DNA from: Cyanophora paradoxa CCMP329 | Lineage: Eukaryota; Plantae; Glaucophyta | Assembly: GCA_004431415.1 (NCBI GenBank) | Contig: QPMI01000492.1 | Coordinates: forward strand, 1 to 55,474 | Direction of reading: 5' to 3' | Length of the DNA stretch: 55,474 nt | In this document: positions 6,645-51,226 of the stretch, one piece after another | Layout: the number at the start of each line of letters is the position of its first letter | How positions within the stretch are numbered: position 1 is the first letter of the stretch | Program-made: the position numbers and the translations under genes | The notes under the pieces: model-generated | What the model saw: the letters and a program-made list of their open reading frames with translations, nothing else | The model's database searches: none | Told to the model about the DNA's origin: nothing

Positions 6645-6668
6645 TTTGCCCTAGGTTCAGAAAAACCT

Positions 6669-7110: not shown

Positions 7111-7184
7111 AGGATCGCGCCAAGTCATAACTGAATAGTCGGCCAATTTTTACAAGTATGTACAATGGAATGACGCAATACTAT

Positions 7185-9092: not shown

Positions 9093-9123
9093 TTTTCTCC
9101 CCTTCCGAAAATTTCCCCGCTTT

Positions 9124-10611: not shown

Positions 10612-10660
<49 letters not shown>

Positions 10661-20441: not shown

Positions 20442-20589
20442 ACGAGGGACGGTCCCAGCCCCGGCCTCGGCCTCTGCTCCGCCGCGTTGTAATGCAGTAC
20501 CCCCCGCCCCCAACCCACACACCGTTTTGTGCAACCGAACCAACCCTTTTCTCATCTCTTCATGTCCTCTCTGCAGCTAGTGGGCTATA

Positions 20590-23190: not shown

Positions 23191-23346
23191 CCTTCGGCCA
23201 TCGTCGCTGCTGCAATCGTTCTGCTCTCTGATCGAATCCGCGCCGCCGATTCCGCGACACAGAGGCCTAGCGATGCCCAGTTAAGCCGACTGCTCGACCA
23301 GGGTAGATCAAATTGGCCAGCTGCTCGAATTGCGCGAAGCTGAACG

Positions 23347-24938
23347 ATGAGCGGGCCACACGCGGGTCGGAAGGTGAAGGTGGCGGTCGTGCAAGCCGCG
23401 TCGGTCGCCTTCGACCTCCCCGCTTCTTTGGCCAAGCTTTCAACACTGACGGACAGCGCCGCCAAGAGTGGCGCTTCGCTGGTCTTGTTCCCGGAAGCAT
23501 TTCTCTCCGGTAAGCTCGATCTTGCGCGTACGCATCACCGGGACGCGTGCGATCGGCTTGCGCAGGTTACCCGCGAGGATGCGACTTTGGCTGCGTCATA
23601 GGTGAGCGCTGGAGACCGTCGGTTTATGTACAGCTAAGCGTCTTTTCCGCAGGGAGCCGCACGCCTGAGGGGCGGGAGCTCTTCCGGCGCTACGCGGAGG
23701 TCGGCCGCCCGCCACATTGCACGATTCCCGCGCGCCCAACGTAGGCCCGGCGCAGTCCTCCATCGAGGTCCCGAGTGCGCACACGGAAGCGATCGGCCTC
23801 GTGGCGTCGCGCAACCGCGTCTACATCGTCGTGGGCGTCATCGAGAAAGTGTTGCGCCCTGTCCCTCGCCCTCGCCGCTGCTTACGCATCTGCCGCGCGG
23901 CTGAGCCGGTGCCGGCCTGACCGGCACCCGCAGCGTTCCCTGCACGCTCTACTGCTCTGTTTTGTTCTTCGGGCCGGACGGCGCACTCCTCGGCAAGCAC
24001 AGGAAGCTCATGCCGACGGCACAGGAGCGGTTCGCATATGCATTCAAACTTCCGCCCGCGTCGAGCTCCTTCCTAAGGTCCCGCAGTGTCGTCTGGGGCT
24101 TCGGCGACGGGAGCACGCTGCCCGTGCTGGATACATCGATCGGCAAGTTGGCGGCGGCGATTTGCTGGGAGAGTGCGTGCCCTAATCTTCGAATTCGACG
24201 TTTCGGGCCAGGCGTTGATCGGACCCCTTGAAAGATTACATGCCCATGCTTCGAATGGCGTACTATGCAAAGGGGGTAGAGATCTACCTGGCACCGACCG
24301 CCGACGCCAGGCGCGCTGGCCCCGTACCCCCGACCTCCCTCCCCCTCTCAGACTTGCGCGGCGCGGCAGGGATACGTGGGTTGCGACAATGCGCCACATA
24401 GCGATGGAAGGCCGCTGCTTCGTCCTCTCGTCGAACCAGTTCTGCAAGAGGAAGGACTACCCCAACGACTACCCCAGTGCGCCTTCTTCCCCCCCCCCTG
24501 CCCCCGGAGCGCCCGTCGAGACCCTGTACCCTCCAGTCGAGTCGGATGGCCCGGAGGAGGTTCTCTGCAAGGGCGGCTCGCTAATCGTGAACCCCTCGGG
24601 CCAAGTCATTGCGGTGCGCGCGACCCCGAACCCGCCCCCTACCCATGTTGTGAAGCCGTACCCCCCAGGGCCCCGACTATGACGGGGAAGGGGTACTGAT
24701 CGCCGAGCTGGACCTGGACGACTGCACGCGGGGGAAGCTCGACTTCGATGTCGCCGGTTCGGCTCCCGGCGCTTCCAGCTCTCGCATTTTGCATGTCTGA
24801 TCGAAGGCGGCGCGCGCGTGTGCGTCCGCAGGGCACTATGCCCGGCCGGACGTGTTCCAACTACAGGTCAACGAGCGGCCGTGTATGCCCGTGACGCGCT
24901 TCGGAGCGACTTCCGGCCCGGCCCCGCCGCCGCGATGA
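23347..24938 (+). CDS. Nitrilase (NIT4-like carbon-nitrogen hydrolase)
   Basis: Catalytic E-K-C motifs [17 protein letters not shown] and AAICWENYMP. C-terminal GHYARPDVF. Confidence 0.92.
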
Positions 24939-25326
24939 CCCCAGGCCTAGGGGCGGCCGGTCGGCATCGGAATTAGATCTGTAGCCTCTGCCCGCCATGC
25001 CCTCCTAAAGGCGCCCGTGCGGCAGACGAAAGAACGCAGACTAAGAGTAAGGACAGAAACTAGATACAGGGCGAGGGCGAATCTGGCTCGGCAGGGTAAG
25101 CGGGCGGGCGTAAGCGGGCGGGCGGGCAGGAAGTACGGTGCACGGGGAGGCGGGGGGAGGAAAGGATAAAGAGAAGCGCTCAGATGAGAACGGGATGGCT
25201 CAGGCGAGCGGCGGGAGGGTGGGGAACGAGGCCGGAGCCCGCCGGGGCGGCGGGGAGGGGCTGGAAGGAGCATCCGGGGCCGGGGCCGGGGCCGGGTGGG
25301 GCGGGGAGGCGGCGCGAGGGGACGCC

Positions 25327-26516
25327 CTAGGGGCGGGGGGAGGGACCCCGGGACCCTGTCCCGGCGGTGCCGCTACTTTTGGGGCGCAGGCTATCCTTAT
25401 CTTCGTCGCCGTAGTCGCCGGCCTCGCCCGAGGCTTTGTTCCCCAGCGTCGACTGCGGGGGACTCTCAGCAAGGGCGGACCCGAACGGAAGAACGGACAG
25501 GGGAAGCAAGCAACGCACGTCCGAGAGCAGGCTGAGGACCTCCTGATAGAAGTCCTGCGGCGGCATCTCCTTGTATTTGATGCCTAACCTAACCGCCTCC
25601 TTGAAGATCTGATTCGATCTGCGTTAGCAGGGGCGAACGTCTACGATCAGAGCGCGCGGCTTGCCTTCACGACGTTCGTCCCGTCCGACGCGGACACAAA
25701 GTACAGCGGCAGGTTGCGCTTTGTCGCGAAGTTGAATGTCTTCTGCGTGACCTTCGTGTCCACTGCGCGGAAGAAGGAAAAGGAGTGAGAGGAGGAGAAA
25801 CGAAGTGCAGGACGAGAGGGAGGTCGGCGGAGTGCGGCGAGGAGAAGGGAAGGCTGGCGGGATCCGCGCACGGTCGATCTTGTTCGCCACGACTAGCGTC
25901 GGAATGCCTTTGCAGAAGTCCTGCAGCTCCTTGTACCACGTCTCCAGGTTCTTATATGTGACCTTCCTGGTCACGTCGAACACCTGCGGCGAGGAGCGGC
26001 TGTCGGCGAGAGCCGCGGACAGAGCGGCGTCGTTTTCGCTGAGTGCTGAGCACCATGATGCAGGCGTTCGCTCTGTAGTAGTAGCTAGGGTGCATACTGT
26101 TGAAGCGCTCCTGTCCCGCCGTATCCCAGAAGTCTGCGCGGGCGCGCGATGGTAAGGCGGGCGGAGTTGCGGCGCGAGCTCGGGAAAGGCACCTACGGGG
26201 ACCTGCTTGCCATCCACATCGTCCACATATCTGTACAGGGTGAGCGCATATGTAGAGAGCTGCTGCGGCTTGTATCCGTCCATCAGAAACCGCTCCACAA
26301 GCCTGCGAGCCACGAAGGTTCTCTTGAGTATGGGCGGCGACGGGCGGAGGGCACGCGGGCGGTGCAGCCGGTCGCGGGCACGGCGCGACGCTGGGAATCG
26401 ACGCACTTCGATTTCCCGACGGCGGAGTCGCCGAGCAGGATGACCTTCACCACGTCATTGTTGGAGAGGTCTGGCGGTGACGCCGGGCTCTGGTGGACCG
26501 GCTCTGCCTCGCTCAT
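25327..26516 (-). CDS. RABL2: Rab-like protein 2 (IFT-associated small GTPase)
   Basis: VKVILLGDSAVGKSK, LVERFLMDGYKPQQLSTYALTL, DFWDTAGQERF..HPSYY, ANKID and FVSASDGTNVVK. Confidence 0.92.
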
Positions 26517-26592
26517 GCGTGTGTGCTGCAAGTTCCGACGCGGCAGAGTTCAACGCGCCTGTACCCGCCGTACTTTCGCAGCTGTACCCAAG

Positions 26593-27216
26593 ATGCCGCC
26601 CCGCAGCAGCCCGACGGGCGGCGACCCGCGGAAGCCGTCGGCCGAGAAGCGCTACGTCGAACGTAAGCTGAACGATGACGAGGTCCGCCGGGCGGGGCGA
26701 TGGCGCTCTCTCTCCGCTCACGCTTCCGCAGCTCCCCGCCGACTACCTCTCCCTCCTCTCCCTCCTGAACGGCATGGTCGGCCTCTGGATGCGCCAGCGG
26801 ATCTTCGCTTGGTGCGCGCTGCTCGCGGGAAGCCGGCGGCCGCCGCGCGGGCCTCCGCTCGCCGCCGACGATCGCAAGCAAGCGTAGCGGCACGCGAATG
26901 ACGCTTCCCGCGCTCCGCAGGCTCGCCCTCTTCTGCACGCTGTCGAGCCTGGCCAACATTCGGTGGTCGACTGTGGACCCCAAGCAGCTGCTCTGCTCCG
27001 TGACCTTCGCCATCACTGGCCTCATCCTCGTGCGCCCGCTCGCCGCGCAGCCCGCGCCGAATTCCGCCCGCACACTGCTCCTGACCTCGCTTGCTCGCTC
27101 TCCCGCGCAGAACTACTTGTGCGGCCCACCCCTCCCTTCGCCCTCGCCGCGGTCGGTATCGTTTATCGCTGACGCCCCCGCGCAGCGGCCCCGCGGCGCA
27201 GCAGTTCGAACGATAG
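26593..27216 (+). CDS. WDR83OS: Asterix / PAT complex subunit (UPF0139)
   Basis: DPRKP..RY..LPADYLSLLSLL.GMVGL.MR..FAW..SSLAN..KQLLCSVTFAI.GL..NYF. Confidence 0.82.
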
Positions 27217-27350
27217 CCGCCGGCCCGGCCGCGTCCCGGCCCGGGGCGCTCAAGTTTAGCGTAGGCATTCAGTCTGTGCTCGAATGTAGGGAACCCATCT
27301 CGTTTCACACCGCGGGCCTCGGAGGGCGCGCCAAGGGCGGCCCCGGGACG

Positions 27351-30300
27351 CTACGGGAGGCCAAAGAGGGCCTTCTCGACGTGGTCGGGCCGGCGCTTCG
27401 TGGGGCGGATGTACCCCAGGAAGTCCAGCTCCTTGACCGAACGGTAGAAGCGCGCCCTGCCGCCCGGTCACTCATCTGCGGGAGGGGACACGGGACGGCA
27501 TTTCTGGAGTGGCGCGGCGCACTGGAGCTCCTTCAGGTCGAGGTTGGCCGCCTGCTTCGCCTCCGAGAAGGATACGAACCTGCGGGGGGTATGGGATTGC
27601 GGAGGCGACGAGCTCGGGGGGTACAGCACGCACCAGTCCGCGAGGGAAACCAGGCGGCCGGACTTGCTGAAGATGTCGTACCTGCCCGCGGGTCGAATCC
27701 GGCCGGGGTACACAATCATCGATCCATTTTCGGCGCACGCGAGTGTGAGGTCGTCCCAGCAGTGGGCCTTGGCGCTCGTTTTCGGCGCAGGCGCCTTCCC
27801 CTTGTCCTTGTCCTTGTCGCTGGGGCCCGCCCCATCCCCCGTCCCCTCCTCCACGCAGCACTCGCACTGCGGGCGGGCGTGAGGCGCGAGGGGTACAAGC
27901 GGGGCTTGACGGGCGTGCGGGCGGGGTACAGGCGGGCCTGCAGGATGGGCTGGGGGTCGGACAGGGCCCGCTGGATTTGCTTCCGGATGGGCGGCGAGAG
28001 CATCTGAGGAAAGCAAAGCTCAGAAGGTGAATCCAAGCGGGCTACGACCCCGCACCTGGGCGAGCGTTCCAGAGCCCCCGAACAGGAACGTTTCGTGGAG
28101 GGGTAGGCGCGAGGGCGGCTTCAGATTCTCCCTGCAGCCCGGGGGGTCGGCAGGAGGAGGAGGGTACTTGCATAACGGGGCCTGGAGGGGTACAGGGCCA
28201 GCGCACTCGCAGAAGACGCGGAAGAAATCGTTCAGCGCCGACTCGAGGGCCGCGTGCTTCGCCATGCTCGCCTTCTGCTCGTACCCCCTTAGGATCGATC
28301 CGGGGGTACAGGAGACTCGCGGGGGGTACGAGGCGCACCGTGGCGGACGGGGAGGCAGAGCCGCCGGTCGCTGTCGCGAGCATGACCCTGCGCCGCCCGA
28401 GGCTCGGCGGGGTACCGAAATAATACTGAGAAAACGCCGGGGGTACCGCCTCCTCTTGGCGGCGCTCCACGTCGTCGCGTCCTGCGCGGCGTCCTTGGCC
28501 GCCCCCGCCTCCTAGGAGGCGCTCGGTGTGAGGCGGGGCGCGGGGAGGAAGGGGGGGGGGGGGGGAAGAGGGGGGGAGGGAGGAGGGGGGGGGGAGGGGG
28601 AGGCGGGAGGCCCGTTCACCTTGCTCGGCCCGTCCGCCTGTTCGTCCTGTCGCGGGGGGTACCGTGATAAGACGCGGGACGGGAGACGGGTAAACAGGCG
28701 GCGGTGGCCGAGGGCCGTACCCCCCCGGCGGCCTTGGGCTCGGGCTGGAGGATCCCGCGGAGCCTCGCGGCGTCGTCGCGGAACAGTTGGTCCTCCTGGG
28801 AGGCAGGCGTGAGGGGTACGGTGATGATTTGGGACAGGGGGGGGCGGGTGGGGGGTACGCGTACCGACTCGAGCTGCTCGACCCACTTCTCGCCTAGGGA
28901 CTTCAGCGCGTCCGTCCGCAGCAGTCTGCGAGAAGGTTCCTCGCCCTCGCCCTCGAGAGAAATGTGGGGGTACACAGAAGGGGACGGGTACCGGAGCGCG
29001 GAGAGGAGACCGTTGTGCGAGGCCCCGCCCAGGAGGGTACCGGAAAGGTACTCCAGGTAGAGCTGCGAGGGTTGAGACGGGGCGCGTTGTACCCCCAAAG
29101 AATCTAAACTCCGGCGGACCTGCCGCCGGGAGCTGGCGCTGGATTCGGAGACAGAGGACGAGGAGGAGCCCGAGCGGCCTGCCGCGGGTTCGATTCCGGA
29201 GGAGGACGGAAGGCGAGCGGGCGGGGGGCGGGGCGGGGCGGGCACCGCCGGCGGCCGCGCGGCTCGTCTCGTGCCACAGGGCCATCGCTACTCGGGCGCT
29301 AAGACAGGGCGCGTCACGGGCGAAGAGATAGACACCGTAGTACGGAGAGCAAGTCGAGAGGGTACCGTATGCGGGCCTGGCAGGTGGAGAGGAAGACCCG
29401 GGGTAGAAGCGCGCGAAGCAGGCCGTCCGCCCCCTCCTCCAGGTCCGCCGCGGCGACCTGGGGCGGGCTCGGGGAGGGGTACGGGGGAGCCGGGGGGAGT
29501 ACGGGCGCACCTCGAGGCCCGGAACGGAGTAGAGGTGCGCCTGGGGCCCGGCGAGGCGCCGGAGGGAGGGGAGGGCCCGGATGCGGGGGAGGAACGAGGG
29601 GGGTACGACCTCCTCGGAAGCGGAGGGGCTGGCCGCGGTAGCCCCCAGGAGGCGATGGACGGCGGCCAGGTTAGCGGGCGCCTTGGGGGGGCACAGCCCC
29701 GCGACGGGGTTCCCGTAGTAGTGCTGCATCGCCGCCGCCTGGGGGGTACGCGTTCGGGGCGGGAGGGGTACCGATCAAGCGGAGCTTGGGGGGTACCTGA
29801 ATGGAGCGGGAGAGCCCGGAGACGGAGTGGCTGTGCTGGAGGAACTGGTCCGAGAGGAACGCCCAGACCTGCCGGCCCGAGGGGTACGTCAGTTCCGAGC
29901 GGGGACAACAGGCGCCGGGACGGGTACGGGCCTCGCCGCCCAGGACGATGCCGTGGTCCCCGTCCAGGAACACCTGTATCCCCGTGAGGAGCAGGAGGAG
30001 GAGGCGAGAAGCAGGGTACAGGTCGCCGCACGTGGGTCACGATCGCATCGAAGTACGCCTGCGCCAAAATATGAGGGAAGCGAGCGAAGAATTGGTGAGA
30101 GAGAAAGCAGCGGGGACCTGGGGTCTCGGCATGTGGAAGTGGCGTATGCGAAGCAGGACCGAGACGGAGCGCGGCAGGAGGCGCTGGATGGATCCCTGTA
30201 CCCCGCCTCAGCCGCTGCGGGGGGCTCCAAGGTGCGCGGGGGGGTACCGCGGCGCCGCCGAAGGCCGCGGAGCCGGAGACGCCGGCGACGAGGACGAAGG

Positions 30301-31681
30301 GTACGCGTATGAGGTTCTCGCTGCGCCGAAAGTTAGGGCCGAAGCGGGCCGGGGGTACAGGGACCGCGCCTCATCGCGAAGACGATGTCGTGAAGGACCT
30401 GAGGGGAAGGCGGGGTACGGGAGTCAAGTCGGCGGAAGGCGGGGGGGGTACTTGCCTTGGCGGGGAAGCTCGCGACGTCCTCGATCAGCACGCACATCCG
30501 CAGCGGCTCTGCCGCGGGCGCGGCTCGAGAGAAGAAGGGGGGGGCGGGGAGGCGGCGGCGGGGAGGAGGGGTACCGGCCGTGGGGTCGGACTCCGCGCGG
30601 CGCCGCGCGAGGGTCTCGTACCACGTGCAGAGCGAGTGCATGTCCTCCCTCTGCGGAAAGCGGCTCAGGAAGCGGGGCGTGGGGGGGCGGGACCCGGATC
30701 GAATCTGCCTGCTGCATGATTCGGCGCGCGGCGTCCTCCTCCTCGTCGCTCTCGATGCCGGCGGCCTCCGCCGCGGCCTCCTCGTCGTCCGCCGGGCCCG
30801 CCGCCGCCGCCGCCGCCGCCGCTGCCGCCGCCGCCGGCTCGCCCTCACCCTTCGCGGGCAGACAGACGCGTGGGCCGCGGCGGAAAGGCGCAGGCGGGAC
30901 GGGCGGCGGACCTGGAACCCTTCGACGAGGGCGCGCATCGCCGCGCGGACGGAGCGGCAGGCGGCGCTGCGGAGGTAGGAGCAGCGCGCCCGGTCCTTCA
31001 GGCGGCTCCGCAGGTGCCGGTGCAACCCTTCCATGACCCCGCCCTGCGCGCGTGCGGCTCGAGATCTAGAGATGCGCGGCGGCTCTTCGCGTGTTGTCGC
31101 GGCGCGCCTGCTCGGTGCCGCTGATGCCGGCGTGGATGAGCGCCGTCGGCAGCTCGTGGAAGCGAGCCTCGGGCAGGCGCAGCGAGCTCGCGTCGCTGGG
31201 GCCCTCCGCGGGCTCAGCGCCGTCCTCCGGCGGCTTCACGCCAGCCACGAAGAGCCCCACGTCGCCGAAGGTCCGCTCGTTGAGCTCGCCGACCACGGTC
31301 TGCGGCCCGGGCGAGCTCGGCGACGGCCGGGCGAGCGGAGGCGGGCGGGCGCACGTCGATGTCGCGCTTGATCTTCCTCCATGACGCCTGGTACGCCTGG
31401 AAGCGCTTCTCGATGGCGGGAGCGTCCTGCGGCGAGAAGAGCCCGCCGAAGCCCTCGAACTCGACGGCGCCGGCATCTTGCTTCTTGAGCGCTGCGGGCG
31501 GCGATCGATTCGCGCCGCGGATGCTCGCCGCAGCGCCGGGCCGCACCCTGGATGCTCTTGCCGGATTTCCGCAGGATGTACGTGCCCTGCGCGCCGCTCG
31601 AGCCTCGCGCCCCACGCGCTCGGGCGTGCGCACCTTCGTGAGGTCCAGCTGGGGCGCCCCGCTCGAGCCGCTTGCCGCCAT
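27351..31681 (-). CDS. ORC3: Origin recognition complex subunit 3 (multi-exon)
   Basis: ELPTALIHAG, VLIEDVASF, FLSDQFLQHSHSVS..AAMQHYYGNP and LPLHETF. C-terminal WH domain SGRLVSLADW..ARFYRSVKELDFLGYIRPTKRRPDHVEK. Confidence 0.88.
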
Positions 31682-31837
31682 CGCACGCTCGGATAACCCC
31701 GGTTCGACTCCGGAGAGAGCAGGCTTCAGCCAAGTGAACGTGGCGGCCGGCCGCAGCTCTCGCGGACGATCGCGAGGCCGGCGGTTGAAGCAAGCGAAGC
31801 GATGGCGGCGACGGAAGAGCAAGAATCCGCGTCGATC

Positions 31838-33256
31838 ATGAGCCTGCCGGGTGCGCGTTCGCTCTCCGGTCCTGACCATTCGGCGCGCCTGTTCGCGCGC
31901 GCCCGCCACTCCAGCAAGCGCGCTGATGCACTGCCGCTGGATCGCAGATGAAATCTTGCTGCTGGTGATGGAGAAAACGGCGGCGGGCAGCGGCACAATG
32001 GCCGTGTTGCGGGGCTTTGCCTCGGCCCGACGCCGCTTCCAAAAGATCGCGCACGCTTCCCCGAAGCTTTTTGAGGAGCCCATCTTCGTTGCCCATCGTC
32101 CAGAAGACTGCTCGGTGAGTCGATGTCCACCGCAACTGCGCGCCGTCGCTCGCGCCAACGTTCGGTGCAGCGCAGTTTCGGATCGATATCCGAGTGCTCA
32201 GAAGAAGATTCAGATCTCGGCGATTGCGACGCGCGGCCGCAGCCGGCCGGCGACAGTATCTTGGACGTCGCGCGGTTGTCTGCGCGCTTCGGCGGCCGCA
32301 TCGAGCGCCTTCACCTTGACGCTGTCAGCTGCAGTTCCCGCATCGACTTCGACAGTACGACCGACTCTGACCATGGCGGCAAGGTCGACCGCGTCCTCTT
32401 GAACGTCCTTCAAGCCTGCCCCAACATTACGCATCTCTCCCTCTCGAGCTCAAGCAGCGACGCTCGCGAGCACGGTTCTTTATCGACCCTCGGCCGCAGA
32501 GCTTACAATCGCGCGGTCTACGGGCCCCTTGCCGGGTTGGAGGAGCTCCCCGAAGGATTCTCCCTTAAGCTTCCCCGCCTCCGCCACCTCGACCTCTCCA
32601 GCCGCACCGTACCTCTCCCGGCCCTCCGCTGCCTCATCAGCGCCTGCTCTGCCTCCCTCGAGTGCCTCTTTCTCCGGTGAGTGCTCTTCGGTGTCTTTCC
32701 GCTCTAAAACATTTTCTCAGAGCTTGCCTGACCACCAGCATGCGCATGTGCATGTGCATGCGCAGGGACACGCGTGTGATCGAGCCGGCGTCTCACGGCG
32801 GAGCTCGAGGTCTTCCGATTCATTATTGCAAGCCCCTTCAGGTCGCCGCTGCCCTCGAGCGGATCAATCGCGAGTGCGTGCGCGCGCGCGCCAGTCACTG
32901 ATCGGATCCTGGTCTGCAGCTGCCTCGAGCTCTCTGCCTTCTTTGGGCTGACTTGGCGCCTTGCGCGCGCGTGCAGCTTCCCCCACCTAAAAAGCCTCGA
33001 CCTTTCCTACTCGAACGCCTGCGCCGACATCCACGCGCTGCGCCGCCTCATCGCCCGGCTCCCTGCCCTCCGCGATCTGTACATCGTGCGCCAGCTGCGC
33101 ATGCATATGCAGTGCCCAGCCCGTGGGCCGTGGCTCAGCCCGTTACCGCAGGTGAAAGCTGGTGCGTACATGCAGGTCGATAATGCGGTGCAGCTGGCGG
33201 AGAATGTGAACCGCCCGGGCCGGCTCGTCATCTACAAAAGCCTCGTGCGTATGTAA
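31838..33256 (+). CDS. F-box/LRR(RNI)-like protein (multi-exon)
   Basis: IADEILLLVM..ASARRRF (F-box-like), CPNITHLSL, LPRLRHLDLS, SLECLFL and LPALRDLYI. Confidence 0.55.
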
Positions 33257-33917
33257 AATCGCTCATTGCAATTGCGAATGTATATGGTGGACTCGCTGCT
33301 CCGCAGCCCGACGTCGACATAGAGCCCGGCCCGCTATGCTGCGCCATCTCCGCGAGATTATCAATCCCAATCGCGACTCTGAAGATCTAGATCTTTTTAT
33401 CAACTATATCTAGATTCTTATTATCTTATAATTATTATCGACTTCAGCGCGACATGGGGCCCGCTGCGCTGCGCCACGTCCGCGAGCATTTCAACCGGGA
33501 CGGCCGGGTCGACGTGACACGCCTGGCGTTCCCCGCCTTCTTAAAAGGTGCCCTCTGAATCTAGATCTTATGATCATGATCAGGGTGGTGCCCTCTAGAT
33601 CTTCTGGATCTCTTACGAAGTGCCCTCGAGCTCTAGATCTTATGATCAGCTGCAGCGGACAGCTGATCGCGCAGCTGATCATGCGAATACTTGTACTTGT
33701 GGTTTCTGATCCCTCCCTCGCCTCCGGATCCTCGAATTCGCAGCACTCTTCTGCGGCCCCTACGGGCGCGACGTCGACGCCGCGAGGCGACTTGTGGACG
33801 AGCTGGGCGTCGCGCCTCGCGCACGCTTCCAGGAATCTTCAATCGGCCCCTGCAGCTGGGTGATCGTGATCATGAGCCCCTCCTTGGCCCGCCATTACAG
33901 CTAACTCTAGCCCTGCG

Positions 33918-36055
33918 ATGTTCCTCGCGCAGGTACCCCCCTTCTTTCGAGACTGCATCGAGCAGGAGAACGTCCCCGAGCCGCTGCGCGCGGAGGGATT
34001 GACCGCTCTCCACGCCCTCGTCGGGGGCTACTACTACGATTTCCATGTCGACGGTGCACGAAAGGCAGGCCTGGCCCCGGCCCACTACTACCTACACCAC
34101 CCCACCCCGCAGCCCCTGCCCCTTAATTAATTATATTATAAGCTTTCCCGCTGACTCTCGCGCATGCGCAGGTGATTCAGGAGTGGCAGCTTGCCTCCCT
34201 TGTCGACGCGCCGCTGCGCTCCGGAATTCGAACGGGCCGTACCCCCCTCCACCTTGCTGTAGAGACCCCGAACCCTCTCCTCGTGACCCTTCTGGAACTT
34301 GGCGCCGACCCGCTTCGCCAGGTTCGAATTCGCGATCGTCGCAGCCCGCGGTTGCCCGCCCGCTCGCTCGCGATCACGATCACGCAATCTTCTCACACGG
34401 CACGCGCGCGGGGGGCAGGACGCGGCCGGTTCCACCGCGCTGCACATCGCGTGCAAGCGCGCCAACATCGACGCCGTGCGATCTCTTCTGAAGTTCGGCG
34501 CTGTGCCGCTCTGCAAGGTGCGGCTCCAGCCTGGCAGCCCCGAGCTCGAGGCCATAGCTAGCTCGCTCTGGTCGCGCCCCGAAAGGACGCCGCGGGCGCC
34601 CGGAGAGATAGACGGTAGAGCTCGAGTACGTAGTTAAGACTAGGCTGCGCCCGGCACGCGTGCCTTGCTTGCACTGGGTGTCCTTTATCAACTCTACTTG
34701 ACTCTCAGAGTCTTAACTCTACCGCCACACCTTATTACATATACATACAAGCCACCTTACTATCTCTCCGCAGGTACAGGACGCGGCGGGCGCCACCGCG
34801 CTGCACATCGCCTGCGGGCGCGGGCACGTGGACGTGGCGCGGGCGCTGCTGGAGTGGGCGGCGGGCGCGGGCGCGGGGGCCGACGTCCTCTCCGCGAGGG
34901 ACGGCGGGGGCCGCACCCCGCTGCAGCGGCTCGTACACGGCGGCAGCGATGATGAGCCCAGCAGGCCTGCAGCGGACGTTAACGCGTCGCTCATCGCAAT
35001 CCATGCCGTCCGTGCGTTCTCTAGATCTAGATCGTAGATCTAGATCTTAGATCTAGATCCGACCCATCCGAGCTCGAGCTCGCCCGCCGCAGAGATCTTG
35101 GAGCTGGACGGCCCGCGCCTGGAGGCCCTGGGGCCCACCAATTATCCTATAAGGTAATGCATTATTAATTAGCACTTCTTCAAAGGCCCTTGTTTGAAAG
35201 CCTGCCCTTACCAATATTGCTACGTGGTTAGGTGCGTATTTACCAGCTAGAATTAATGATTCAATCTCAGTAACAACAAATCGTGCCTCCTCTTTATCAT
35301 TCCAACAAGATATTATTTTAATTTTTCCCCCGTCTATTCTATCAGTCCATAGGGTTTTCCATCCTGGAGGAGGCCGTCCGGGGCCGGGAGGGCGCCGAGC
35401 CGCTCCTCCACTTCGCGGCGCGGAGGGACATGCCCGGGGCGGTGCGGGCCCTCCCGGGAGCCGGCGCCGACCCGGCCCCCGCCTCGAGGTTCGAATCCGC
35501 ACCCTAGGCCTCCCTAAGCTTACGCCTGCTGAGAGTTGAACCCGCCCGGGCCCCGCCCCCTCCCGAGATATAAGTCTTACTATAAACCCCCGTTGCTAAT
35601 TATAAGCCTTGTTATAATCCGCCTCGAGGTTCGAATCCGATGATCCGCACCCTCCCTGATCATGATCCTCCCTGATCGTTGCCTACGCTTAAGCCTGCGC
35701 GCGTCCCCCGCACGTCGTTGCTAATTATAAGCCTTACTATATAAGCCCCCGTTGCTAAATACAAGCCTTGTTATAAGCAGGCCCCTGCCCGATCGTTGCC
35801 AAATTATTATATAGGCCCTTGTCGACGCCGACTTTAGCTTCAGGGCTTCCCCCGCAGGACAGGGGCGGCGCGATGGTTCTGCAGGCGGCCGCGCAGTCCC
35901 GGGTGCGGGCGGTGCAGCGGGCGATCCGCGCCTTCGCCGGCGAGCGGGGCGTGCCCCTCGACGCGATCGGGGACACGAGCTACCGGCTCGCGGCCGACGT
36001 CGACGCCGGGAGCTCCCGCCCAGAGAAGCGGGCCCGCACCAGTCGCCGATCCTGA
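33918..36055 (+). pseudogene. Ankyrin-repeat gene, probably disrupted
   Basis: GRTPLHLAV, GSTALHIAC, GATALHIACGRGHVDVARALL and PLLHFAA. One exon is frameshifted by a 221-bp insert. Confidence 0.7.
35141..35361 (-). other. uvrD: AT-rich bacterial uvrD/pcrA helicase fragment (Rickettsiales-like) inserted in a host exon
   Basis: [54 protein letters not shown] matches the UvrD C-terminal domain. Abrupt drop in GC content. Confidence 0.85.
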
Positions 36056-36240
36056 TCATGACAGCTAGCTGTATGTGTGCTCAAGAGCATTTGGGCTTTA
36101 CCGCTTTTTTGGAGCTCCCGATCGCTCGAACTCGTGATCGATCGCGAGTCAGATCTAAAAGCCGATTGCCAAGTTTCGAGCCTCGGAGTCGACCTTTTTT
36201 TGAGGGACCCTCGAATCTCATTAATATTTTGGCCCAGACA

Positions 36241-36845
36241 TCTCTCTCACCAATCCTTCGCTCGCTTCCCTCATTTCGAATTCGGCGCAGGCGTATACGT
36301 ACTTCGATGCGATCGTGACCCACGTGCGGCGACCTGTACCCTGCTCCTCGCCCCCCTTCCCCCCCCTGCTCCTCACGGGGGTACAGGTGTTCCTGGACGG
36401 GGACCACGGCATCGTCCTGGGCGGCGAGGCCCGTACCCGTCCCCGCGCCTGTGATCCCCGCTCGGGACTGATGTACCCCTCGGGCCGGCAGGTCTGGGCG
36501 TTCCTCTCGGACCAGTTCCTCCAGCACAGCCACGGTCTCCGGGCTCTCCCGCTCCATTCAGGTACCCCCCAAGCTCCGCTTGATCGGTACCCCTCCCGCC
36601 CCGAACGCGTACCCCTCCAGGCGGCGGCGATGCAGCACTACTACGGGAACCCCGTCGCGGGGCTGTGCCCTCCCAAGGCGCCCGCTAACCTGGCCGCCGT
36701 CCATCGCCTCCTGGGGGCTACCGCGGCCAGCCCCTCCGCCTCCGAGGAGGCCGTACCCCCCTCGTTCCTCCCCCGCATCCGGGCCCTCCCCTCCCTCCGG
36801 CGCCTCGCCGGGCCCCAGGCGCACCTCTACTCCGTTCCGGGTCTC
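36241..36845 (+). pseudogene. Inverted partial duplicate of ORC3 (source 29514-30104), introns retained
   Basis: Near-identical reverse complement of the source, with small indels (CACTCCGTCTCC to CACGGTCTCC; an extra 6 nt in GCGTATACGTACTTC). Confidence 0.9.
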
Positions 36846-36870
36846 TTGCGGTATGAGTTAATACAAGCGA

Positions 36871-37660
36871 GTCCCTGCGGAGCAGGAGTGGCCTTGGGTC
36901 TTGGGGCTTCAAGGCGTGAGGGTGGCAGCTCTTTGTTTTTTAACGGGGGCCCGCAACCGCGCGCGGTTACGGGGGAGGGGGGAGGAGAAATAGGGGGTCC
37001 ACTCGGCAAGGGTACACACTCAAGTGAGAGGGTACAGAATTGTGCTGCATGGGTACAGAGATATCGATGCGGGGCCCAATCGGCCGCAGTTGTACCGAGC
37101 ACAGGCCCCGAGGGGCCCATTGGTCGTTTCAGCTGAATGAAAACGACTTTAATTTCGGCGCTTTTTGGAGGTGGTTAATAATAAGCTATGAATCATTTGA
37201 ATGTAATTCGTAGTAATAAGGCTCTGTCTAAATTGTCTATTTTAATTATCTTTCAATCAACGCATCAAATCCTTTTAAATCCCACATCGTGGCACACTAC
37301 GACCCTGTCTCATACAAATTTGCTGGCCGGCAACGTGCCACGGTGGCGCTCCGTTAATTTGGAGACTATTTCCTAGCGAATGGGGTGCGGCCTTTTCAAA
37401 TTAAGAATTCTTAAAATTCGACTTGGAGGACCAATGTGATTTGCGCTTTCAGTTTTTTTCCGGGAAAATGCTTTTCGATGCTTTTCGAGGTGCTGTTACT
37501 GCCCATTAGAGGCCTCTCATAGGAAAACCGCCTCGGCCATCGTGCTCTCCAGGGTCGAAAACGGGTACCTAGGTCCAAAAATTTTGCCCTGAATCGCAGT
37601 TTGAATCCACGGACAGGACAGGCACAGACCTAAGGGCCTCTCCTTTCCCCAAGGCCGACT
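36871..37660. mobile_element. Possible degenerate non-autonomous TIR element
   Basis: AGGAGTGGCCTTGGGTCT near 36885 versus the reverse complement AGGAGAGGCCCTTAGGTCT near 37626-37644. AT-richer non-coding interior. Confidence 0.3.
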
Positions 37661-38299
37661 AAGTTGCGGCATGCGCAGCTGCGCGCGGGCGGCCCGCGGC
37701 CGCGGGCCTGCGCATGCAGCTGCCGCAGTGCCGACGGTGCACTGCAGCTGCGCATGCTGCGCGCGAACTGGCGCGCGCGCCGCCGGGCCGGCATGCGCAC
37801 CCATGCGCATGCATGCGCGCGCGCGTGCATGCGCGCGCATGCATATGCAACTTAGTATGCAGCTGCGCACGCCTGCATGCCGCAGCCTTGCAATTGCATG
37901 TGGTCCATGATCGCTATCATGCATGTGAGCGCTATAGCTAGCGCTAGCTATATATAGCCATCGCCGAGTCGCTGCGCATGCGCAGCGATAGCTGGTAGCA
38001 GCTGCGCAGCCTGCCTGTATGCATGCTGGTGGATCGATCGCGCGATACAGCTGCAGTCAGCATTCAACTTGGCAATTTGATCGCGCCAGATTCGGTGAAG
38101 TTTTCTTGTCTCCCCGTACCCGTACCCGTCTCGCGCCCGCTTCGCATCCCGCGGCAGCCGCTAAGCTTCCATCGCCCAAGAACGCCACGTATACGTACAT
38201 CGCAAGACGCAGCACGTAAGTAGCACACCGTCAGCCGATCCGCTGAGCTCCAGCGCCGCCGCAAGCTAGCCTCAAAGATAAGTGCACCGTCTCGGATCG

Positions 38300-40163
38300 G
38301 GTTGGGTCTGCAACTGCGTCAGGCTGCGGCAGCGCTCGGCCTGCGTCCAACAAGTGGCTGTACTGCACGCCGACACCGGCGACTGCACGCCAAGCAGACC
38401 GCCCGTGGAGGTTTCGAACACTGGCCGGACGACGCTCGGCTGGCAGCCCTGACACAGCAGCCGCCCAGCTTTGAACAACACAGGCAAGACGAGGGGAATG
38501 CACGTACGGCGCCAGGGCTGAGGGCAGAGGCGAAACTTGAGCAACTCTTACGTCGATACGGGCAAGCGCCGTGCAGGCAGTCGCTCAGTGCAATTTGCGC
38601 GTCCCCAATGTTTTCGTCGATGTAAGCTTCTCCCTGGATCCGTCTAGAGCCGCCGAAGCGCAGGCTGACGGAGCGTCGCAGATTCGATCTGCAGGACGCG
38701 CCCCGGCCTGGGACCCAGAGCCGGCCAGCGCCATCCAAGGACGCCTTTGACTTCGGAGCCGCGAAGACGCCAGAGCCGGAGGCCTCTGAGCCCCGCGAGC
38801 CGTGCGCGTACGGCTGCGGGCGGTCCCTGCCGTCCCGCCTCCTTCCCTGCCACGTCTCCACCGAGTGCCCGCTGGCTCCGGTCCCGTGCTGTCGCGCGCA
38901 CCGCGGCTGCGGCTACGTGGTTCGTGTCCTAGATTTGATCCGCCTGCCAGCTCTCTCCCGTTCCGACCGCGCCGCGCCGCAGTGCGAGCGGGAGGTGCTA
39001 CCGGACCACATCCGCGCCTGCCCGTACCGGGTGCGCGTGACGCGCTTTCAGATAGCGCCGCTTCGAATTTGATCCGATCCGATCCGCGCGTTCGGCTCGG
39101 CGCGCAGAAGCGGAGAAGCCCAGCGGCCGGGGGGTCCCCAGCCTCCGCCGGCTCCGCCTCCCCGGGATCCGATTACAGCCCGCGGCCGCCCCAGCGCGGC
39201 GACTACTTTGGCTTCGCATCGTTTTCCCTACCCCCTCCCGCGCTGCCGCTCGAGGGTCGCGTGCCCACGTACTCCTCCGCGCCGGTGCGGGCGTACCCCC
39301 CTTCGCAGCCTACGCCGTTTCCCCCTGACATGTCGACCTTCAGGGCTTCCTGTCGCTTCGCATCACCGATCCAGTCGGCACTCTCGAGTTTCGAATGAAG
39401 GTGTGCAGCGTCGTACCCCCCTCCGAGCCTCGTACCCCCCTCCGAGCCTCGTACCCCGTCCTGACTCCGCTCCTCCTTCCGCAGCGGAACGCAGAATTCC
39501 ATAAGGTACACGTACCCCTTGTCGGGCTCCCCACCCACCCCTCGGCTGAACGCTGTACCCCGCAGATGATGGTGAAGTACGGCCGCCAGAGGGGCCTCTC
39601 CCCCTCCGATATGATGTTCAGGTACCCCTGCTTGCCCCCCCCTCCCTCCCCCCGCCCCGCTTCCCCCCGACTGCCTCGCGACCGGGTACCCCGCGCAGTA
39701 CCGCGCTCCGGGGTACGGGCACGCCGCTGCGGGAGTTCCACACGCCCGCGTCCCTCGGACTCTGCGACGGTGACGAGGTCCGATGTACCTCACCCCCCAT
39801 TCTCTCAGATAATTGCTCAGAACCTCGCTCAGATAATTGCGGTACCCATGGCGCTTGCAATGGCGGGGGAGGATGCGCTGCGCTCCCGTTCTCTCCTCGT
39901 GCGTGTACCCCCCCCCTCGTCACAGGTTTACGCTCCCGCTTCTTATCTTCTCCAGGCGCTCTCGGCCTCGCAGCGCGAGTGGGTCGATCGCACCCCCCCT
40001 CCCAGCGGGGGGTACCCGGGGCCTTCTGCGCCCTCTCCTGTACCCCGGCCCTCCGATCCCGTCCGGTTCGCGGCATAGCCGCCACTGCGGACAGGCCCGC
40101 TCATCTGAGCCCACCCTCCAGAGTCTGAGCGCTCGTCCCCCTCCAGAGTCCGAGGAGGGGTAA
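38300..40163 (+). CDS. Putative zinc-finger (TRAF-type-like) plus SUMO-like-domain protein; 5' end uncertain
   Basis: CEREVLPDHIRACPYR, and MMVKYGRQRGLSPSDMMF..GTPLREFHTPASLGLCDGDE.I resembling Rad60-SLD/SUMO. Confidence 0.45.
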
Positions 40164-40786
40164 CGGTACCGGTCCGAATCTTTCGGGCTTCAGCCCCGTC
40201 GCCGCCCGGCCCGCGGCCGTGAAGGGGGAATTCAATGACTCTGCGCATGCCACTGGCCATGGCCATATATATGCGTGGGCCGTTGGGCCAGGTTGAGTGA
40301 ATTCGAATTCTGCCAGGCTGAATTTGCAATTGGCTCAAGCCGCTGAGCTGGCCCAGTGGACCCGGTGAGGGAGGCTTTTGTTTAAGGCTTTATCGATATC
40401 GGCGCACCTTATCGAGGCCTATCGGCCTATCGGCCGGCGCCGGCGCTGAGCTCGCTGCGGCTTATCCTTTATAATTAATTATAATTAGTCTGGCAGCGAC
40501 TGGCGGCCAGTGCACATGCTCATGCACATGAACACGCAGCGAATTCGAAGAATGTTAATTGCGCTGGCTCCGGCGGGAGCGGAGGCGCCGCCGGCGCCGG
40601 CGGGATCGGCCCCGGCCGAAGCGGCCCCTTCGGAGGCGGCGCTCAGACTGCGCGCCGCGGGGCTTGCCAAGTTGATCATGACGATTCAAAGTTTGCATTG
40701 TGTGCACTAGATATAGCAGGTCGACTGCATTTTGCACACTGATCACTATATATCGTACTCGAATTTCGATCTGGCTAGTTCGTTGA

Positions 40787-42818
40787 TCATGTTCGGTGAT
40801 CAACGGTTCGTTCTAACGTCAACCCATCTGAAAGCGATTTAGAAAGCTCCATCTGTACTGCTACACACGAACGCCGGAAAGCCAGCAAGACATGTACAAC
40901 TACCGGCGCAAATAAGATGAACGCCGGGAAGCGTGACCTCGGAAAGAAGTGCGCGCGTCTCCGGCAGGGAGCGAGGCCTCCGCTCGCGGCGACGCTGCCC
41001 GGAGACCCGAGGTCGTGTGGGCCCCGGCAAAAGTTACGCTGGGTGCCGCTGTCCACGCCGGGCGGGGGAGGGACCGGGGCCGGCCACCAGTGAAGCAGTC
41101 GACGAATTTCTTGAGGTAGGTCGACGTCGGCCAAGGACGGGGTTCGCACTCCTCGCTCACGAACACGGGGTCCGGCAGGAGGGTAGCGGCGGCGGGGACG
41201 GCAGCGGCGAAGATCGCCTCGCACTCCTCCGGCCGTGCACGCGGCAGGCTCCGCACATGATCGTCGTACGCACGCTTGAGGCGCGCCCGCACCTGCCGCG
41301 CCCCAGTTGGCGGTTGCGGACGGGGGGAACGGGGGGCGGGGGCAGAAGGGGCAGGACCTCCTCGAGGCGGGCGCGGCCAGAGCTGAAGTTGCGGCTTCGA
41401 GTGACCTGCCAGCGCGGGGCTCGGTTCCAGGCGGCCGCGGTGGCAGGAGGGGCCGGGCGGGCGGGCAAGCGGGCGGGCGGGGGCGGCGCACCCTATAGAC
41501 GACATTCGTATCGTTCGTGGCGACGCGTTCGCGGACGGGGGGGCCCCAGGGGATCTCCGAAGCGTCCAGAAGCGCCTTCTCCCGCGCTGAGGCCGCCCTG
41601 AGCTCGTCTTCGCAGTGCTTCGCCCGCTCCCACGCCGCATCCACCGCCGCCGCTGCCGCCGCCTGCCGCTCTCGCGCCTGCGCCAGCTGCACCTGCGGCG
41701 GAAGCACCGGCGGCGGCGGCAGCTGCATCGGCGGCCCGCGCTGCGGGCGCTCCGGCTCCTCCTCGTCCGCCTCCGCCCGGCGCACCTCCGCGAGCCCTGC
41801 AACGCGGTTAGCGCCGCGGCGGGCAGGCGGGACGGGGTGGCGCACAGGGGCAGCGGGGCGAGGACGGGAAGCGCTCGAGGAGGGGGAGGAGAGGCGCGAG
41901 GCGGCTGCCGAGGCCAACGTGCTGAAGCAGCCGCACCGCGAACGACTGCGGCGTGCCGTCCGCCCCGCGCAGCATCCGCGGCGCCACCCGGAACGCGTTC
42001 GCGAAGGTCCGCACCTGTTTGCATGCGCTGCGTCGGCACCCGCCCAGGGAAAGAAGAGGAGCAGGCAGGGGCGAACCGCCTCGGGCGTGGCGGTGGAGGA
42101 GCCGACGTGGTGCCAATCAGCCGTCAGCTCAGCAGCCCCAGCTGGGCGCTCCTCGACGGTCGCCGCGCGGGTGGACACATACACCGTGCCCTGCAGTTGA
42201 AATTGTTCCCGTGAGGCGTGGCGCTGGTCCGGGGTGCGGGACGGGTAGGCGGAAACGGGCGGACCGCGATGCGGACGGCGAAGACGGGCGGACGGTCCAA
42301 TGCGCCGGGCCAGGCGGCCACGTACACCTGCGCCGCCCGCCCGCCCGCGACGGCCTCCGCGTGTGGCGCGTCGTCGCCTGGGCCCGCGGCCGGCGCCGCC
42401 GGCAGGCGGCTCCGCAACGGCGACGGCCGCCGCGCTGGCGCGGCGCTTGCGCGAGCGCCACCGGCGCCGGACGCATGTTCCGGGACGGGCCGCTTCGGTG
42501 GGGTCGGGTCCCGCGGATGTGAGCACGCAAGCGGCGAGTCCAGCTCCCTGCGGGCCGGAGACTCGGAGTGCTCGGTACACACGTGCGCGACAGCACGCAG
42601 CGCGCTGGCGGGAATCCGAGCGGGCGATGGAGGCCGCGCCGTGACACGAGCAGGCGAGGGCGGACGCCTAGTCCGCGTGGTTCGTCCATCTGCGACATTC
42701 GCTTCAGTCTCGAAGTTTCGCTGCCAAGAGGCGAAAACACACAACCTTCTTTGTCTTCTCGGAGCAGGGCTTCGGGCGCGAAAGAGACGCGGCGCGCGGG
42801 GGCGGCGCCGGCGGTCAT
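40787..42818 (-). CDS. Hypothetical multi-exon protein (C2-like N-terminal region, coiled coil)
   Basis: Start MTAGAAPARRVSFAP; exon fragments VYVST..WHHVGSS and AWERAKHCEDELRAA; host-type short introns. Confidence 0.45.
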
Positions 42819-42943
42819 GGCGAAGACCAGAATGTAATGGACGCGTACCCCCAGAAGTGGACCGTACGCGTGTCGACGTCCGACCGCCGCCCGACCGCGG
42901 CTCCGACAGCCACTCCACTCGCACCGCTTTTCAGTCGCGCAGA

Positions 42944-45601
42944 ATGCTTCCCTTCCGCCCCGTCGTAACAAGCGCGGACTCGCTGTCGTCTAGCTTGTCC
43001 ATTCCGACGATACCGCGGACGGTCGCGCGGTCATCGCTACAGCGGCACTTCAGCTTGCCGGCGGAGGCCATCCCCGTATGAGCTCGCTTCGCCTCAGTGC
43101 ATTCTCGCACGCAGGCAGCTAACTGCCGCCGCCTCAGGAAGATTCTGCGGTGATCCTGAAGCGAGGCTTACGCCCGGATGAAATGGTACGCCTCGGCACG
43201 GACGAGGGCGACCCGTACACGCTCGACCTGTGCTTCGTCTTCGACGGGACTGGCTCTATGGCCAGCTACATCGCCGCCGCGAAGAAGTCTATCTTCGAAA
43301 TCGTCTCCGTGTACCGCAAGAGCTTTCCGTGCGTGCCGCTGCGTTGCCCCGCGCGCGTCGCACATGCATCTGCACTTGCGCGCGCGCGTCTGCCTCGCGC
43401 CGGCCCGTGCCTGCATCTGCGCATGCCTCGCGTGGCCGCGCATTCCCTGCGCTTTCCCCGCTTCCAGCGAGCAAGACGTTCGCAGGAAGTACATGCTTCG
43501 GCTGGGCTATGTTGCCTACCGCGACTTCGGCGACAAGAAGTGCGGGCACCCCTTCTCTCCGCGTTCGCGCGAGCGGGGTCCCGGCGCTGACCGCGACTGG
43601 GCGGGCCAGGCCCGTGGAGACCTTTGACTTCACGGAGAGCGAGGAGGCGTTCGTGCAGAGCCTCGGCGCGGTGGCGGCTACCGGCGGCGCCGACGAGACT
43701 GAGGATGGTGCGCCCGGCCCGCCCCGCGCTCCTCGACGCCTTCGGCCAACGCGCGCGCGCGGCAGTGCTGGGCGGGCTGGAGGCTGCGCTAAAGCTCAAC
43801 TGGAGCGGGAGGAGGCGCGTGCTCGTGCACATCGCGGACGCCCCCTCGCACGGCACCTTCTACCACGACGGGGCGGGCGACAGCCACCCGGACTTCGACA
43901 AGGACGGCGCCAAGGGCCAGGTCCGGCCCGGGCCCTCCCCCGGCCCGTGCGCCCCGGCGCCCTCACCTCCGCGCAGTCGGTCATGCGGCGGCTCGCCGCC
44001 AAGTCTGTCGACTTCCACTTCTGCAAGGCGAGCGAAGCGCGCCCCGCCGAGCGGCGCGGCTAAGCGGGCGGCAGATCAACGAGTCGACGGACAAGATGGT
44101 GCGCAAGCTCGCCGAGGCGTACGACCCCGCCGCCCGCAAGGTCAGGGCCGCCACCACCACGGCCTGCGCCGCTGCCGGCCTCACGGTCTGCGGATCCGGA
44201 GCAGCCGCTGGCGTCACTCGAGCTGCGGTCGGCGGTGAACGAGTTGGGGGCCTTGATCCTCGACACCATCTGCTCCACCGTCACCGCGTCGAGCCTCTCT
44301 CTACGCACCGGCAAGGTGCACGGCGCCCGCCCGCGCCGCCCGCCCGTGCACGTGCCGCCCCTCACGGCCCGCAGGGATCGGCGCTGGAGTTCGACATGAC
44401 CGAGTACACTATCAACAAGACGCCTGTTCCGTGGGACGTTGCGGATCACCCGCGCTGGGGCCCCTGGCAGACGGTGCGCCGCTGCCTCGGACCGCGACCG
44501 AGCGGCGAGCGGGCGGCAGGTCTACCTGTACGATTTCCCGGAGCTGCGGTCGAGAAGGGAGCCGCTGGGCTACTTCGAGATCGAAGGAGAAGCGCTGGTG
44601 CATCTCAACGTGCGGGAAGGTGTGCGGCTCCGGCTCTCTCAGGAGCCGTGCGCCAAGGGCAGCACGCGGCGCGTCTACTTCGCCATGACCTCCAAGGGGG
44701 AGCGGCTCGTCGCCAAGGTGCTGCCTCCCGGCCCGGCCCGGCCCGGCCCGCCTCGCCCCGGCGCGACCCCGCTGCAGCTCTGGAACGTGCGGGCCTCGGC
44801 GGAGCTCACCCACGACCTGAACGTCGGAGCCGCCCGCTGCCTCGCCGTGGCCAGGTGCCGCCCTATTCCTCCGTTGAAGCGCGCAGGGATGCGCGCTTAG
44901 CGCCAGAGGCGGGGGGCAGGTTCTTCGCCAAGCGGTTCAACCCGGCGCTGAAGGACCTCGGCCGGAGCGAGCGAGTCGAGTGCGGCCCGCCCTGCGGCCG
45001 CGTGCTGCCGGGCACTGCAGCTGAGGGGGCCCGGGGGCGGCAGATTCGTGGATACGCTCGTGTGCAATGCGACGGTGGGCGCGGCCGCGGGGTCCGCGCG
45101 GACCTGGATGACGCTGGAGCCCTACATGGAGGGGCCGTTCAAGAAGTACAACAGCAACGACGGCTTCGTGCTGCACGGCAGCAGCGCCGAGTCGAGCGTG
45201 CTGCAGGCCTTCTCCCACTACACCGCCTACCACTCCCGCGGCCGCCTCCTCGTCGTCGACCTGCAGGGCACCGGCCTCGCCCGCCTGACCGACCCCGCCG
45301 TCCAGTACAACGCCGGTGCCGACGCCCCCACCGGCCGCTTCCCCTTGACGCGCACGACCGCATTCAACCACTTCCGCATTGGTGGTCTGCCCGCGGCCGC
45401 CGCCCGCCCCCCTTTCGGCCGCCCCGCACCGATCGCAACCGCCGCGCAGGCCTAGGGCCAGGGCAGGGTCAAGAGACTGTGCCGTACTTCTCGGCGACGG
45501 ACCTTGGCGCCACGGGCTTTGCCAAGTTCTTCGAGACGCACAAGTGTGGCCCCTTGTGCCGCGCCCTCGGCATCTCCCGCCTTTCCCCACTGAGCCGCTA
45601 A
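42944..45601 (+). CDS. vWA-domain alpha-protein kinase (vwkA-like)
   Basis: vWA: LDLCFVFDGTGSM, GYVAYRD, GGADETED, HIADAPSHG. Alpha-kinase: LEPYMEGPFKKYNSNDG, QAFSHYT, LLVVDLQG, LTDP, FFETHKCGPLC. Confidence 0.92.
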
Positions 45602-46054
45602 TTATTGTACTCGAGATATCGATACTCCTCGTGCTCGGACCTGAAGCTGCATAATTGTTTGGCAATCAGTACGTATACTCAGATGCCTATCAGGGACAGC
45701 TCACGGGCCAGTAGGGGCAGCATCACGGGGGCAGCCGAGGATAGAAACGATCGCGAAGGCATGTCTACGTAGCTATATAGCTAGCGCTAGCGGAGGAAAA
45801 ACTCGGATAGGAAGCCCTTCTTAGCTTCAGCTATTTCGCGCTCGCGATCGCGCGATCGCGATATCGAACAGATCTAGATATCGATCGCGATATCGATATC
45901 TCTATATCGAAATATCGATATCGATGTCCAATGACCCCGAAGACCTAGAGACCACTGGCGCCGGCCATTCATTACAAACCACTCATTCAGACAGCTCACA
46001 CGAGTCGTGACACGACAAATGCAACTGAGCTGCCAGGCTACAAAAGCGCATGCA

Positions 46055-49000: not shown

Positions 49001-49255
49001 TCCTTCGGCCCATAAGCCACGAGCGACACTCCGCATTCGTCCGGCAGGCGCCCGATCATTCCGCGGCAGGCATTGATATTCTCAACCTTCGAGCTGCCGT
49101 GCACCGGGAGGACCTGCGGCGCACGAGTGAGAAGCGGCAGCGCACAGCGCGGCGCTGCGCCAAGGGCAGCGTACGGGAAAGTGCTCCACCACGCGCTCGT
49201 GGCTTTTAGCAACGCGCAGCGGCAAGAGCGGAGGAACGGGAGCGGCAGCCGTCAT
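46055..49255 (-). CDS. Multi-exon protein with IFI44-like P-loop GTPase domain
   Basis: ILFHGNMGSGKSS..NSLYS, HVTTYRRY, YAGEEL..GLLADG, VVVFV, VIVTHGD and IHVLAN. Confidence 0.6.
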
Positions 49256-49434
49256 TCTGCGCTCGAGCGGGAACAGCTGCGCACGCGGAGGCGCACGAAG
49301 ACCGAAAACAGCCGGTTGTACTATGAGGATGCTCAGTGTGTGCAATAGCTCGTACGCGTCCTAGTCGAACTGGTTTTCAGAATTGGTCCCTGAATGTGAA
49401 CGTGTACCCCAAAAACTGGTCTTCTCTTTGAGCG

Positions 49435-50725: not shown

Positions 50726-50762
<37 letters not shown>

Positions 50763-51194: not shown

Positions 51195-51226
<32 letters not shown>

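Follow-up and report, generated by a model that had tools for sequence, protein, structure and literature searches.

We describe an RNA-supported, clean case in which a coding exon of a probably haploid alga, Cyanophora paradoxa, has been broken by bacterial DNA. Judged by its matches and its place in a tree, the inserted piece is a fragment of the helicase gene uvrD and of Rickettsiaceae origin. The insertion is genuine and nuclear, both junctions being spanned in independent contigs (contigs, not raw reads), and it is fixed in the material sequenced. The fragment was likely caught as filler at a double-strand break repaired by end joining, at which about 10-14 host bases were likely lost; we put the probability of this reading at roughly 0.7. 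The host lineage, and not the mechanism, is what is new; the kind of insertion is already known, with a precedent in Volvox carteri. Coordinates are collected in Table 1.

Table 1. Features of the host gene and the insert. Positions refer to the window, the whole stretch of 55,474 nucleotides that was analysed.
Feature	Position	Strand	Remarks
Host gene, Cyanophora family	31802..36055	plus	F-box-like start, LRRs, ankyrin repeats, basic C-terminal motif
Host exon containing the insert	35093..35488	plus	whole in spliced contigs of runs X15, X16, X17
Left junction	35131..35140	plus	35133 closes the host Gly codon and is the only base that can be shared; 35134-35140 gives the donor I-G-G codons
Rickettsiaceae uvrD fragment	35134..35362	minus, antisense to host gene	229 nt, GC 0.37, GC3 0.25, equals E. 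coli UvrD about 305-379
Premature stop in host frame	35155..35157	plus	TAA from insert, 331 nt ahead of last exon junction
Right junction	35359..35363	plus	35359-35362 matches donor H-G codons, one base missing beside T run; host resumes by 35363
Second, independent frameshift	35475..35479 (place approximate)	plus	about 5 extra bases behind insert
Last exon, now untranslated	35858..36055	plus	last ankyrin-like repeat and basic K-R-x-R motif

Identity, donor and age of the insert

The GC content of 0.37 at 35134-35362 stands against 0.73 and 0.83 in the exon parts on either side, and the minus strand of 35134-35358 holds 75 stop-free codons (K..GG). Two measures were used for recognition of a helicase fragment, the curated cut-off of 25.6 bits for the Pfam family UvrD_C and a match to a solved UvrD/PcrA. 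The insert frame matched UvrD_C with 34.5 bits (E 2e-08, profile 31-102), and its translation matched residues 306-379 of E. coli UvrD with E 2.5e-10. On both measures the stretch is classed as a fragment of a UvrD/PcrA/Rep helicase gene. The real boundaries lie at about 35134-35362, rather than at 35141-35361; a nucleotide BLAST against two Tisiphia-type genomes aligned 35135-35362, with 228 query against 229 subject bases and one gap of 1 nt. The insert has no bacterial function, as it is without a start, covers 75 of about 650-700 codons and lies antisense. An organelle origin was ruled out, the best matches all being bacterial; uvrD is not known as an organelle gene.

Among the GTDB matches listed, the insert is closest, at 79-80% amino acid identity, to Ca. 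Tisiphia and two Torix-type Rickettsia MAGs, the 26 best loci are 63-80% identical and mostly labelled Rickettsiaceae or Rickettsiales, and Ca. Megaera venefica reaches 73% at the amino acid and 68% at the nucleotide level. Metagenome relatives reach at most 77% among the matches listed. Column counts and trees were based on the best 50 of 160 loci (top ungapped matches), of which 43 are distinct. In the tree of 225 columns and 50 rows, the insert falls inside a 45-row ingroup (100/99), among Rickettsiaceae rows, where its partner is a metagenome contig (99/82). The pair belongs to a group that includes Tisiphia and Rickettsia (85/81) and not to the Megaira side. The AU test rejected neither the Megaira grouping (p 0.145) nor the Tisiphia grouping (p 0.344).

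An earlier reading, made from the sequence only, had described the insert as AT-rich and stop-free in the uvrD frame, matching the C-terminal region of UvrD/PcrA and resembling Rickettsiaceae. All of this was borne out, with best matches (among those listed) that are neither non-Rickettsiales nor organellar. The Megaira-like donor it suggested is not favoured, given the 73% against 80% amino acid identity and the side of the tree on which the insert lies, although Megaira stays unrejected.

The closest nucleotide identity of any donor found is 76% (75-76% for the Tisiphia type). The donor was probably a separate, unsampled Rickettsiaceae lineage, since this value equals the identity between Tisiphia and Rickettsia (74-76%) and is far below the 95-98% shared by the three Tisiphia-type rows. 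As a separate observation, some genome records with a uvrD (L005, L012, L013, L058) bear the titles Janthinobacterium lividum, Bacteroidetes bacterium or Rickettsia typhi. Three of them, L005, L012 and L013, fall in the tree beside Rickettsiaceae rows to which they are unrelated, and the four records are probably mislabelled or mixed MAGs.

The insert keeps every one of 27 invariant residues; of 71 invariant bases it keeps 70, which gives a 95% limit of decay of 7.6%, and its GC3 of 0.25 compares with 0.70-1.0 in host exons. Five of its residues occur in none of the 43 homologs (leave-one-out range 0-7), which leaves room for a few later changes. Neither an excess of amino acid change (residual +0.016, within the homolog range) nor a clear loss of CpG (4 vs 2-13) was found in the insert. 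By these measures it is young in evolutionary terms and at most a few per cent decayed. The capture had been called fresh. The insert is almost undecayed, but these counts only set a bound on its age, and further along the exon there is a second frameshift.

The host gene in independent sequencing runs

Among 24 listed sequencing runs, 14 contain 0.99 of the locus words (12 of those being marked as possible sources of the DNA) and six contain 0.69-0.71. Contigs were compared with the locus for four of the 24 (X1, X15, X16 and X17), the 2019 and 2024 DNA runs and X24 lying outside this comparison. Run X1 yielded a single unspliced contig of 1661 nt over 34667-36327, with both junctions inside and 0 differences. 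In runs X15, X16 and X17, which come from three studies, the exon (35093-35489) is carried whole by one spliced contig, the insert being kept with 0 differences. RNA is not on record for these three runs, and they were taken as RNA on the grounds that GT-AG introns are missing from their contigs. A joint skipping the insert was not present among the contigs of the four runs. The insert is found in runs dated 2012 to 2024.

Over 35155-35271, the summed depths of the four runs (7.53, 74.8, 60.7 and 52) are in each case equal to the depth of the one host contig, so a further contig with 90% likeness to the insert stretch, be it a donor or an empty allele, was assembled in none of them. This result is weak for low-level carriage, as contigs drop rare sequence. 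The empty allele and symbiont contigs brought up by the sequence-only reading did not appear in these four runs, and the depth lends no support to the current symbiont it proposed. The strain is described as probably haploid in the genome paper (PMC6704402), and therefore an empty allele is not expected within it.

The public gene model covers the 5' half of the host gene only, ending at residue 371. Spliced contigs connect its exon ending at 33245 to 33448, which makes one gene of what the annotation divides. One upstream exon matches a EukProt protein of the Cyanophora paradoxa series with 100% identity; the F-box-like start was seen by eye and is without a Pfam match. Alternative joints were observed (33448-33547 skipped, acceptors 35843 and 35857, last intron retained), as well as a GC-AG intron at 34065-34171. 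An inverted duplicate of a spliced gene piece (29514-30104 vs 36241-36845, 94% over about 600 nt) flanks the gene.

With the insert, the host protein ends at about 640 amino acids. It has lost its last ankyrin-like repeats and the basic K-R-x-R tail that is present in nine of ten paralogs and for which a role in nuclear localisation is our guess. A new intron created by the insert was rejected, as the insert is retained in spliced contigs; pairing the GT at 35154 with seven nearby AG restored the frame in no case. With ten or more paralogs present, the alga likely tolerates the loss. The second frameshift is deduced from the exon ending in phase 2, the ankyrin frame resuming in phase 0 at 35858 (GC3 0.94 from there) and the paralogs having three residues at this place. 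Behind the stop, the exon carries W to R and L to P changes. The frameshift aside, relaxed selection was not apparent there, with 2 of 18 invariant residues changed compared with 3 of 31 in front (8 of the 10 paralogs used) and no clear difference. Searching the right-flank peptide against 1.84 billion representatives returned no ortholog in another glaucophyte; generic repeat proteins and two known paralogs were matched.

Other features of the window were recorded. A dense intronless gene block at 570-6644, unlike the host, resembles an endogenous virus or a Polinton-like element; it encodes a C1q-domain protein (1884-2711), an fn3/beta-sheet repeat protein (2730-4763, minus strand) and an HNH endonuclease (6279-6644), together with several ORFs without a Pfam match. 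Heptamer tandem repeats in both orientations (6662-7111 and 9124-9770) and an exact 219-nt direct duplicate (9124-9342 and 9552-9770) are possibly element ends. The contig start (210-565) holds an array of short, partly self-complementary repeats, and 52803-53337 contains tandem exon-intron duplications of about 148 nt, 90-94% identical, with a coiled-coil-like repeat.

Junctions and repair

At the insertion site, G-V-R-x-A-[F/L]-L-E-E is found in 10 of 10 paralogs. The sequence-only reading had noticed a CCA at 35138-40 and again at 35359-61, and an excision of 35141-35361 that is in frame, both of which are correct. The excision gives LEALGPTILEEAV, with P-T-I where all ten paralogs have the five residues V-R-x-A-F/L. 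The product, G-P-T-I-L-E-E, is two residues shorter than every paralog, and the ancestral allele is most likely not recreated.

Both CCAs are most likely donor DNA, because bacterial homology runs through both; the loss of V-R, the change of A to T and that of F to I would then be explained at once. On the left, 35134-35140 (CCCACCA) reads on the opposite strand as the conserved I-G-G codons, and the 7-nt microhomology claimed here most likely arose from donor bases misread as host. The Leu codon after Gly starts with C in 27 of 43 homologs, from which the one shared base follows. On the right, we infer a microhomology of 1 nt or an imperfect one of 4 nt (3 of 4) against the expected host Ala-Phe codons. 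About 14 host bases, or 10 if the Ile was already in the host, would have been replaced by 229 donor bases, the host deletion and the ancestral site being deduced from paralog proteins of about 50-75% identity and not from ancestral nucleotides, which were not seen. Against the donor-base reading, Pro is present in 2 of 10 paralogs at the position matching the P of P-T-I, the left end needs GGG as the last Gly codon, which is rare (4 of 43 homologs), and the right end needs a lost base. L084, the nearest tree neighbour, has the same GGG, followed by CTA.

Random pastes were simulated (n=5000, 0-20 nt host loss). A repeat of at least 3 nt within 7 nt of both joints together with a restored frame occurred in 63% of them, and with a repeat of 4 nt in 26%; therefore the CCA repeat and the restored frame are within chance. 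When the filled allele is the only source, apparent microhomology or target-site duplication is often illusory, as the paralogs revealed here.

In the proposed course of events, a double-strand break would have fallen directly behind the Gly codon of the host, at 35133. Joining would have been blunt or on 1 nt at the left end and on 1 nt or the imperfect 4-nt match at the right end, with the host bases removed in end joining and the donor piece sealed in as filler. The donor would have been living in, or entering, cells of the strain's ancestor, and would no longer be evident in the sequenced cultures. Repair by MMEJ or polymerase theta was judged by clear microhomology of at least 2 nt at the joints against the ancestral site. 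With at most 1 nt on the left, 1 nt or an imperfect 4 nt on the right and an ancestral site known from paralog proteins alone, polymerase theta may have been the route. Numt junctions are reported with no, 1-nt or imperfect microhomology and frequent small deletions (PMC2567098). Significant microhomology is given for 35% of 152 numt junctions, single-base matches being no more than expected by chance (PMC2567098). The joints proposed for the insert and the small deletion fall within this spectrum of classical end joining. An earlier Cyanophora assembly, with 178 and 374 organelle-DNA matches, was described as enriched for recent numts (PMC5570036). Recent numts and nupts are described as many in this genome (PMC5570036), so capture of cytoplasmic DNA is common in Cyanophora.

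Alternative accounts, source of the DNA and known systems

An assembly chimera or contamination might be suspected, as 36 contigs with bacterial fragments had been removed from the published long-read assembly (PMC6704402). Both junctions, for which the sequence-only reading had proposed confirmation, lie in the unspliced X1 contig and in the spliced X15-X17 contigs, independently assembled with 0 differences and, in three runs, spliced at the flanking GT-AG introns. This refutes an artefact at the contig level, and its probability is negligible. Capture by MMEJ or NHEJ had also been proposed; end joining stands as the likely route, whereas a clean insertion by microhomology is contradicted by the paralogs and by donor homology through both CCAs. 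The full model of a clean insertion at the CCA site, with MMEJ on the 7-nt left match and a current or very recent Megaira-like symbiont, is helped by the CCA at both ends, the restored frame, P-T-I codons that all end in C like host codons, the lack of decay and the AU test. It needs three departures from the family pattern, each seen in 0 of 10 paralogs, and the pattern it explains is what most random pastes give; neither a donor nor an empty-allele contig was found in the four runs, and the identity to Ca. Megaera venefica is low. We consider it improbable.

The same repair event could have used DNA from outside, either free, or from the bacterium of a co-occurring protist, or carried by a virus or mobile element, the alga never having been a host. 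The single short patch in the window, the relatives common in environmental metagenomes and the virus-like intronless block fit this account. It also fits that no rickettsial symbiont of glaucophytes was found in the literature searched (subscription papers outside scope). This insert was not reported there either, and 'Rickettsia' is absent from the main text of the Cyanophora genome paper (PMC6704402). However, the lack of reports is weak evidence, since the 2023 SRA screen did not include glaucophytes according to its methods, and 'Cyanophora' is absent from three supplements (PMC10132079). Furthermore, Rickettsiaceae are described as obligate intracellular and as infecting non-phagotrophic algae (PMC3283676, PMC6092422), and intracellular DNA should reach nuclear breaks far more easily. 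An outside source is thus unlikely, and the insert is likely the trace of a past infection.

A more specific form of the infection reading is tentative, at somewhat below even odds: C. paradoxa may recently have hosted an undescribed Rickettsiaceae genus near Tisiphia/Rickettsia, leaving more scars in the nucleus, enough to name a 'ghost' symbiont. Cultures of C. paradoxa are said to be axenic (PMC12344493). Calling the donor a symbiont of this alga would follow from the lifestyle of the family, because no donor closer than 76% at the nucleotide level was found. When 1-20000, the rest of 20001-40000 and 40001-55474 were compared with five Rickettsiaceae genomes, no further patch was found in the 55 kb window, the insert itself being recovered with four of the five. 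If this form of the infection reading is true, glaucophytes host Rickettsiales, as green algae and eustigmatophytes do. The host range of Rickettsiaceae would be extended to a group used to reason on intracellular bacteria shaping the first algae. The insert points to an unsampled lineage and brings no new function.

Nuclear Wolbachia transfers in insects and nematodes are Rickettsiales fragments fixed in host chromosomes and mostly non-functional; unlike the Cyanophora insert, they are usually larger, with a donor that is known and living. One of them is cited in PMC4324946. Rickettsiaceae are known in green algae and eustigmatophytes (PMC3283676; PMC6092422), and rickettsial relics are described in nuclear DNA of symbiont-free Volvox carteri strains (PMC4324946). 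As in Volvox, the Cyanophora DNA is a fragmentary, probably non-functional Rickettsiaceae piece in an algal nucleus whose donor is apparently lost. In Volvox the relic extends over about 9 kb, contains several genes and comes from a Megaira-group donor, whereas the insert is 229 nt, lies in a coding exon of a glaucophyte, is transcribed and belongs on the Tisiphia/Rickettsia side. Such transfer is not universal, as a report on symbiont-bearing diplonemids found none (10.64898/2026.01.29.702485). Eustigmatophyte plastid genomes carry the operon of Ca. Phycorickettsia ebo (PMC6092422), again Rickettsiaceae DNA common to an algal host genome and a basis for inferring a partnership; that operon is old, intact, of six genes and in the plastid, in contrast to a young, functionless nuclear scrap. 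In its joints the insert resembles numts and nupts made by non-homologous end joining (PMC2567098; PMC5570036), being short cytoplasmic filler with none to few microhomology bases and a small host deletion, and it differs from them in that its source is a Rickettsiaceae bacterium and not an organelle genome.
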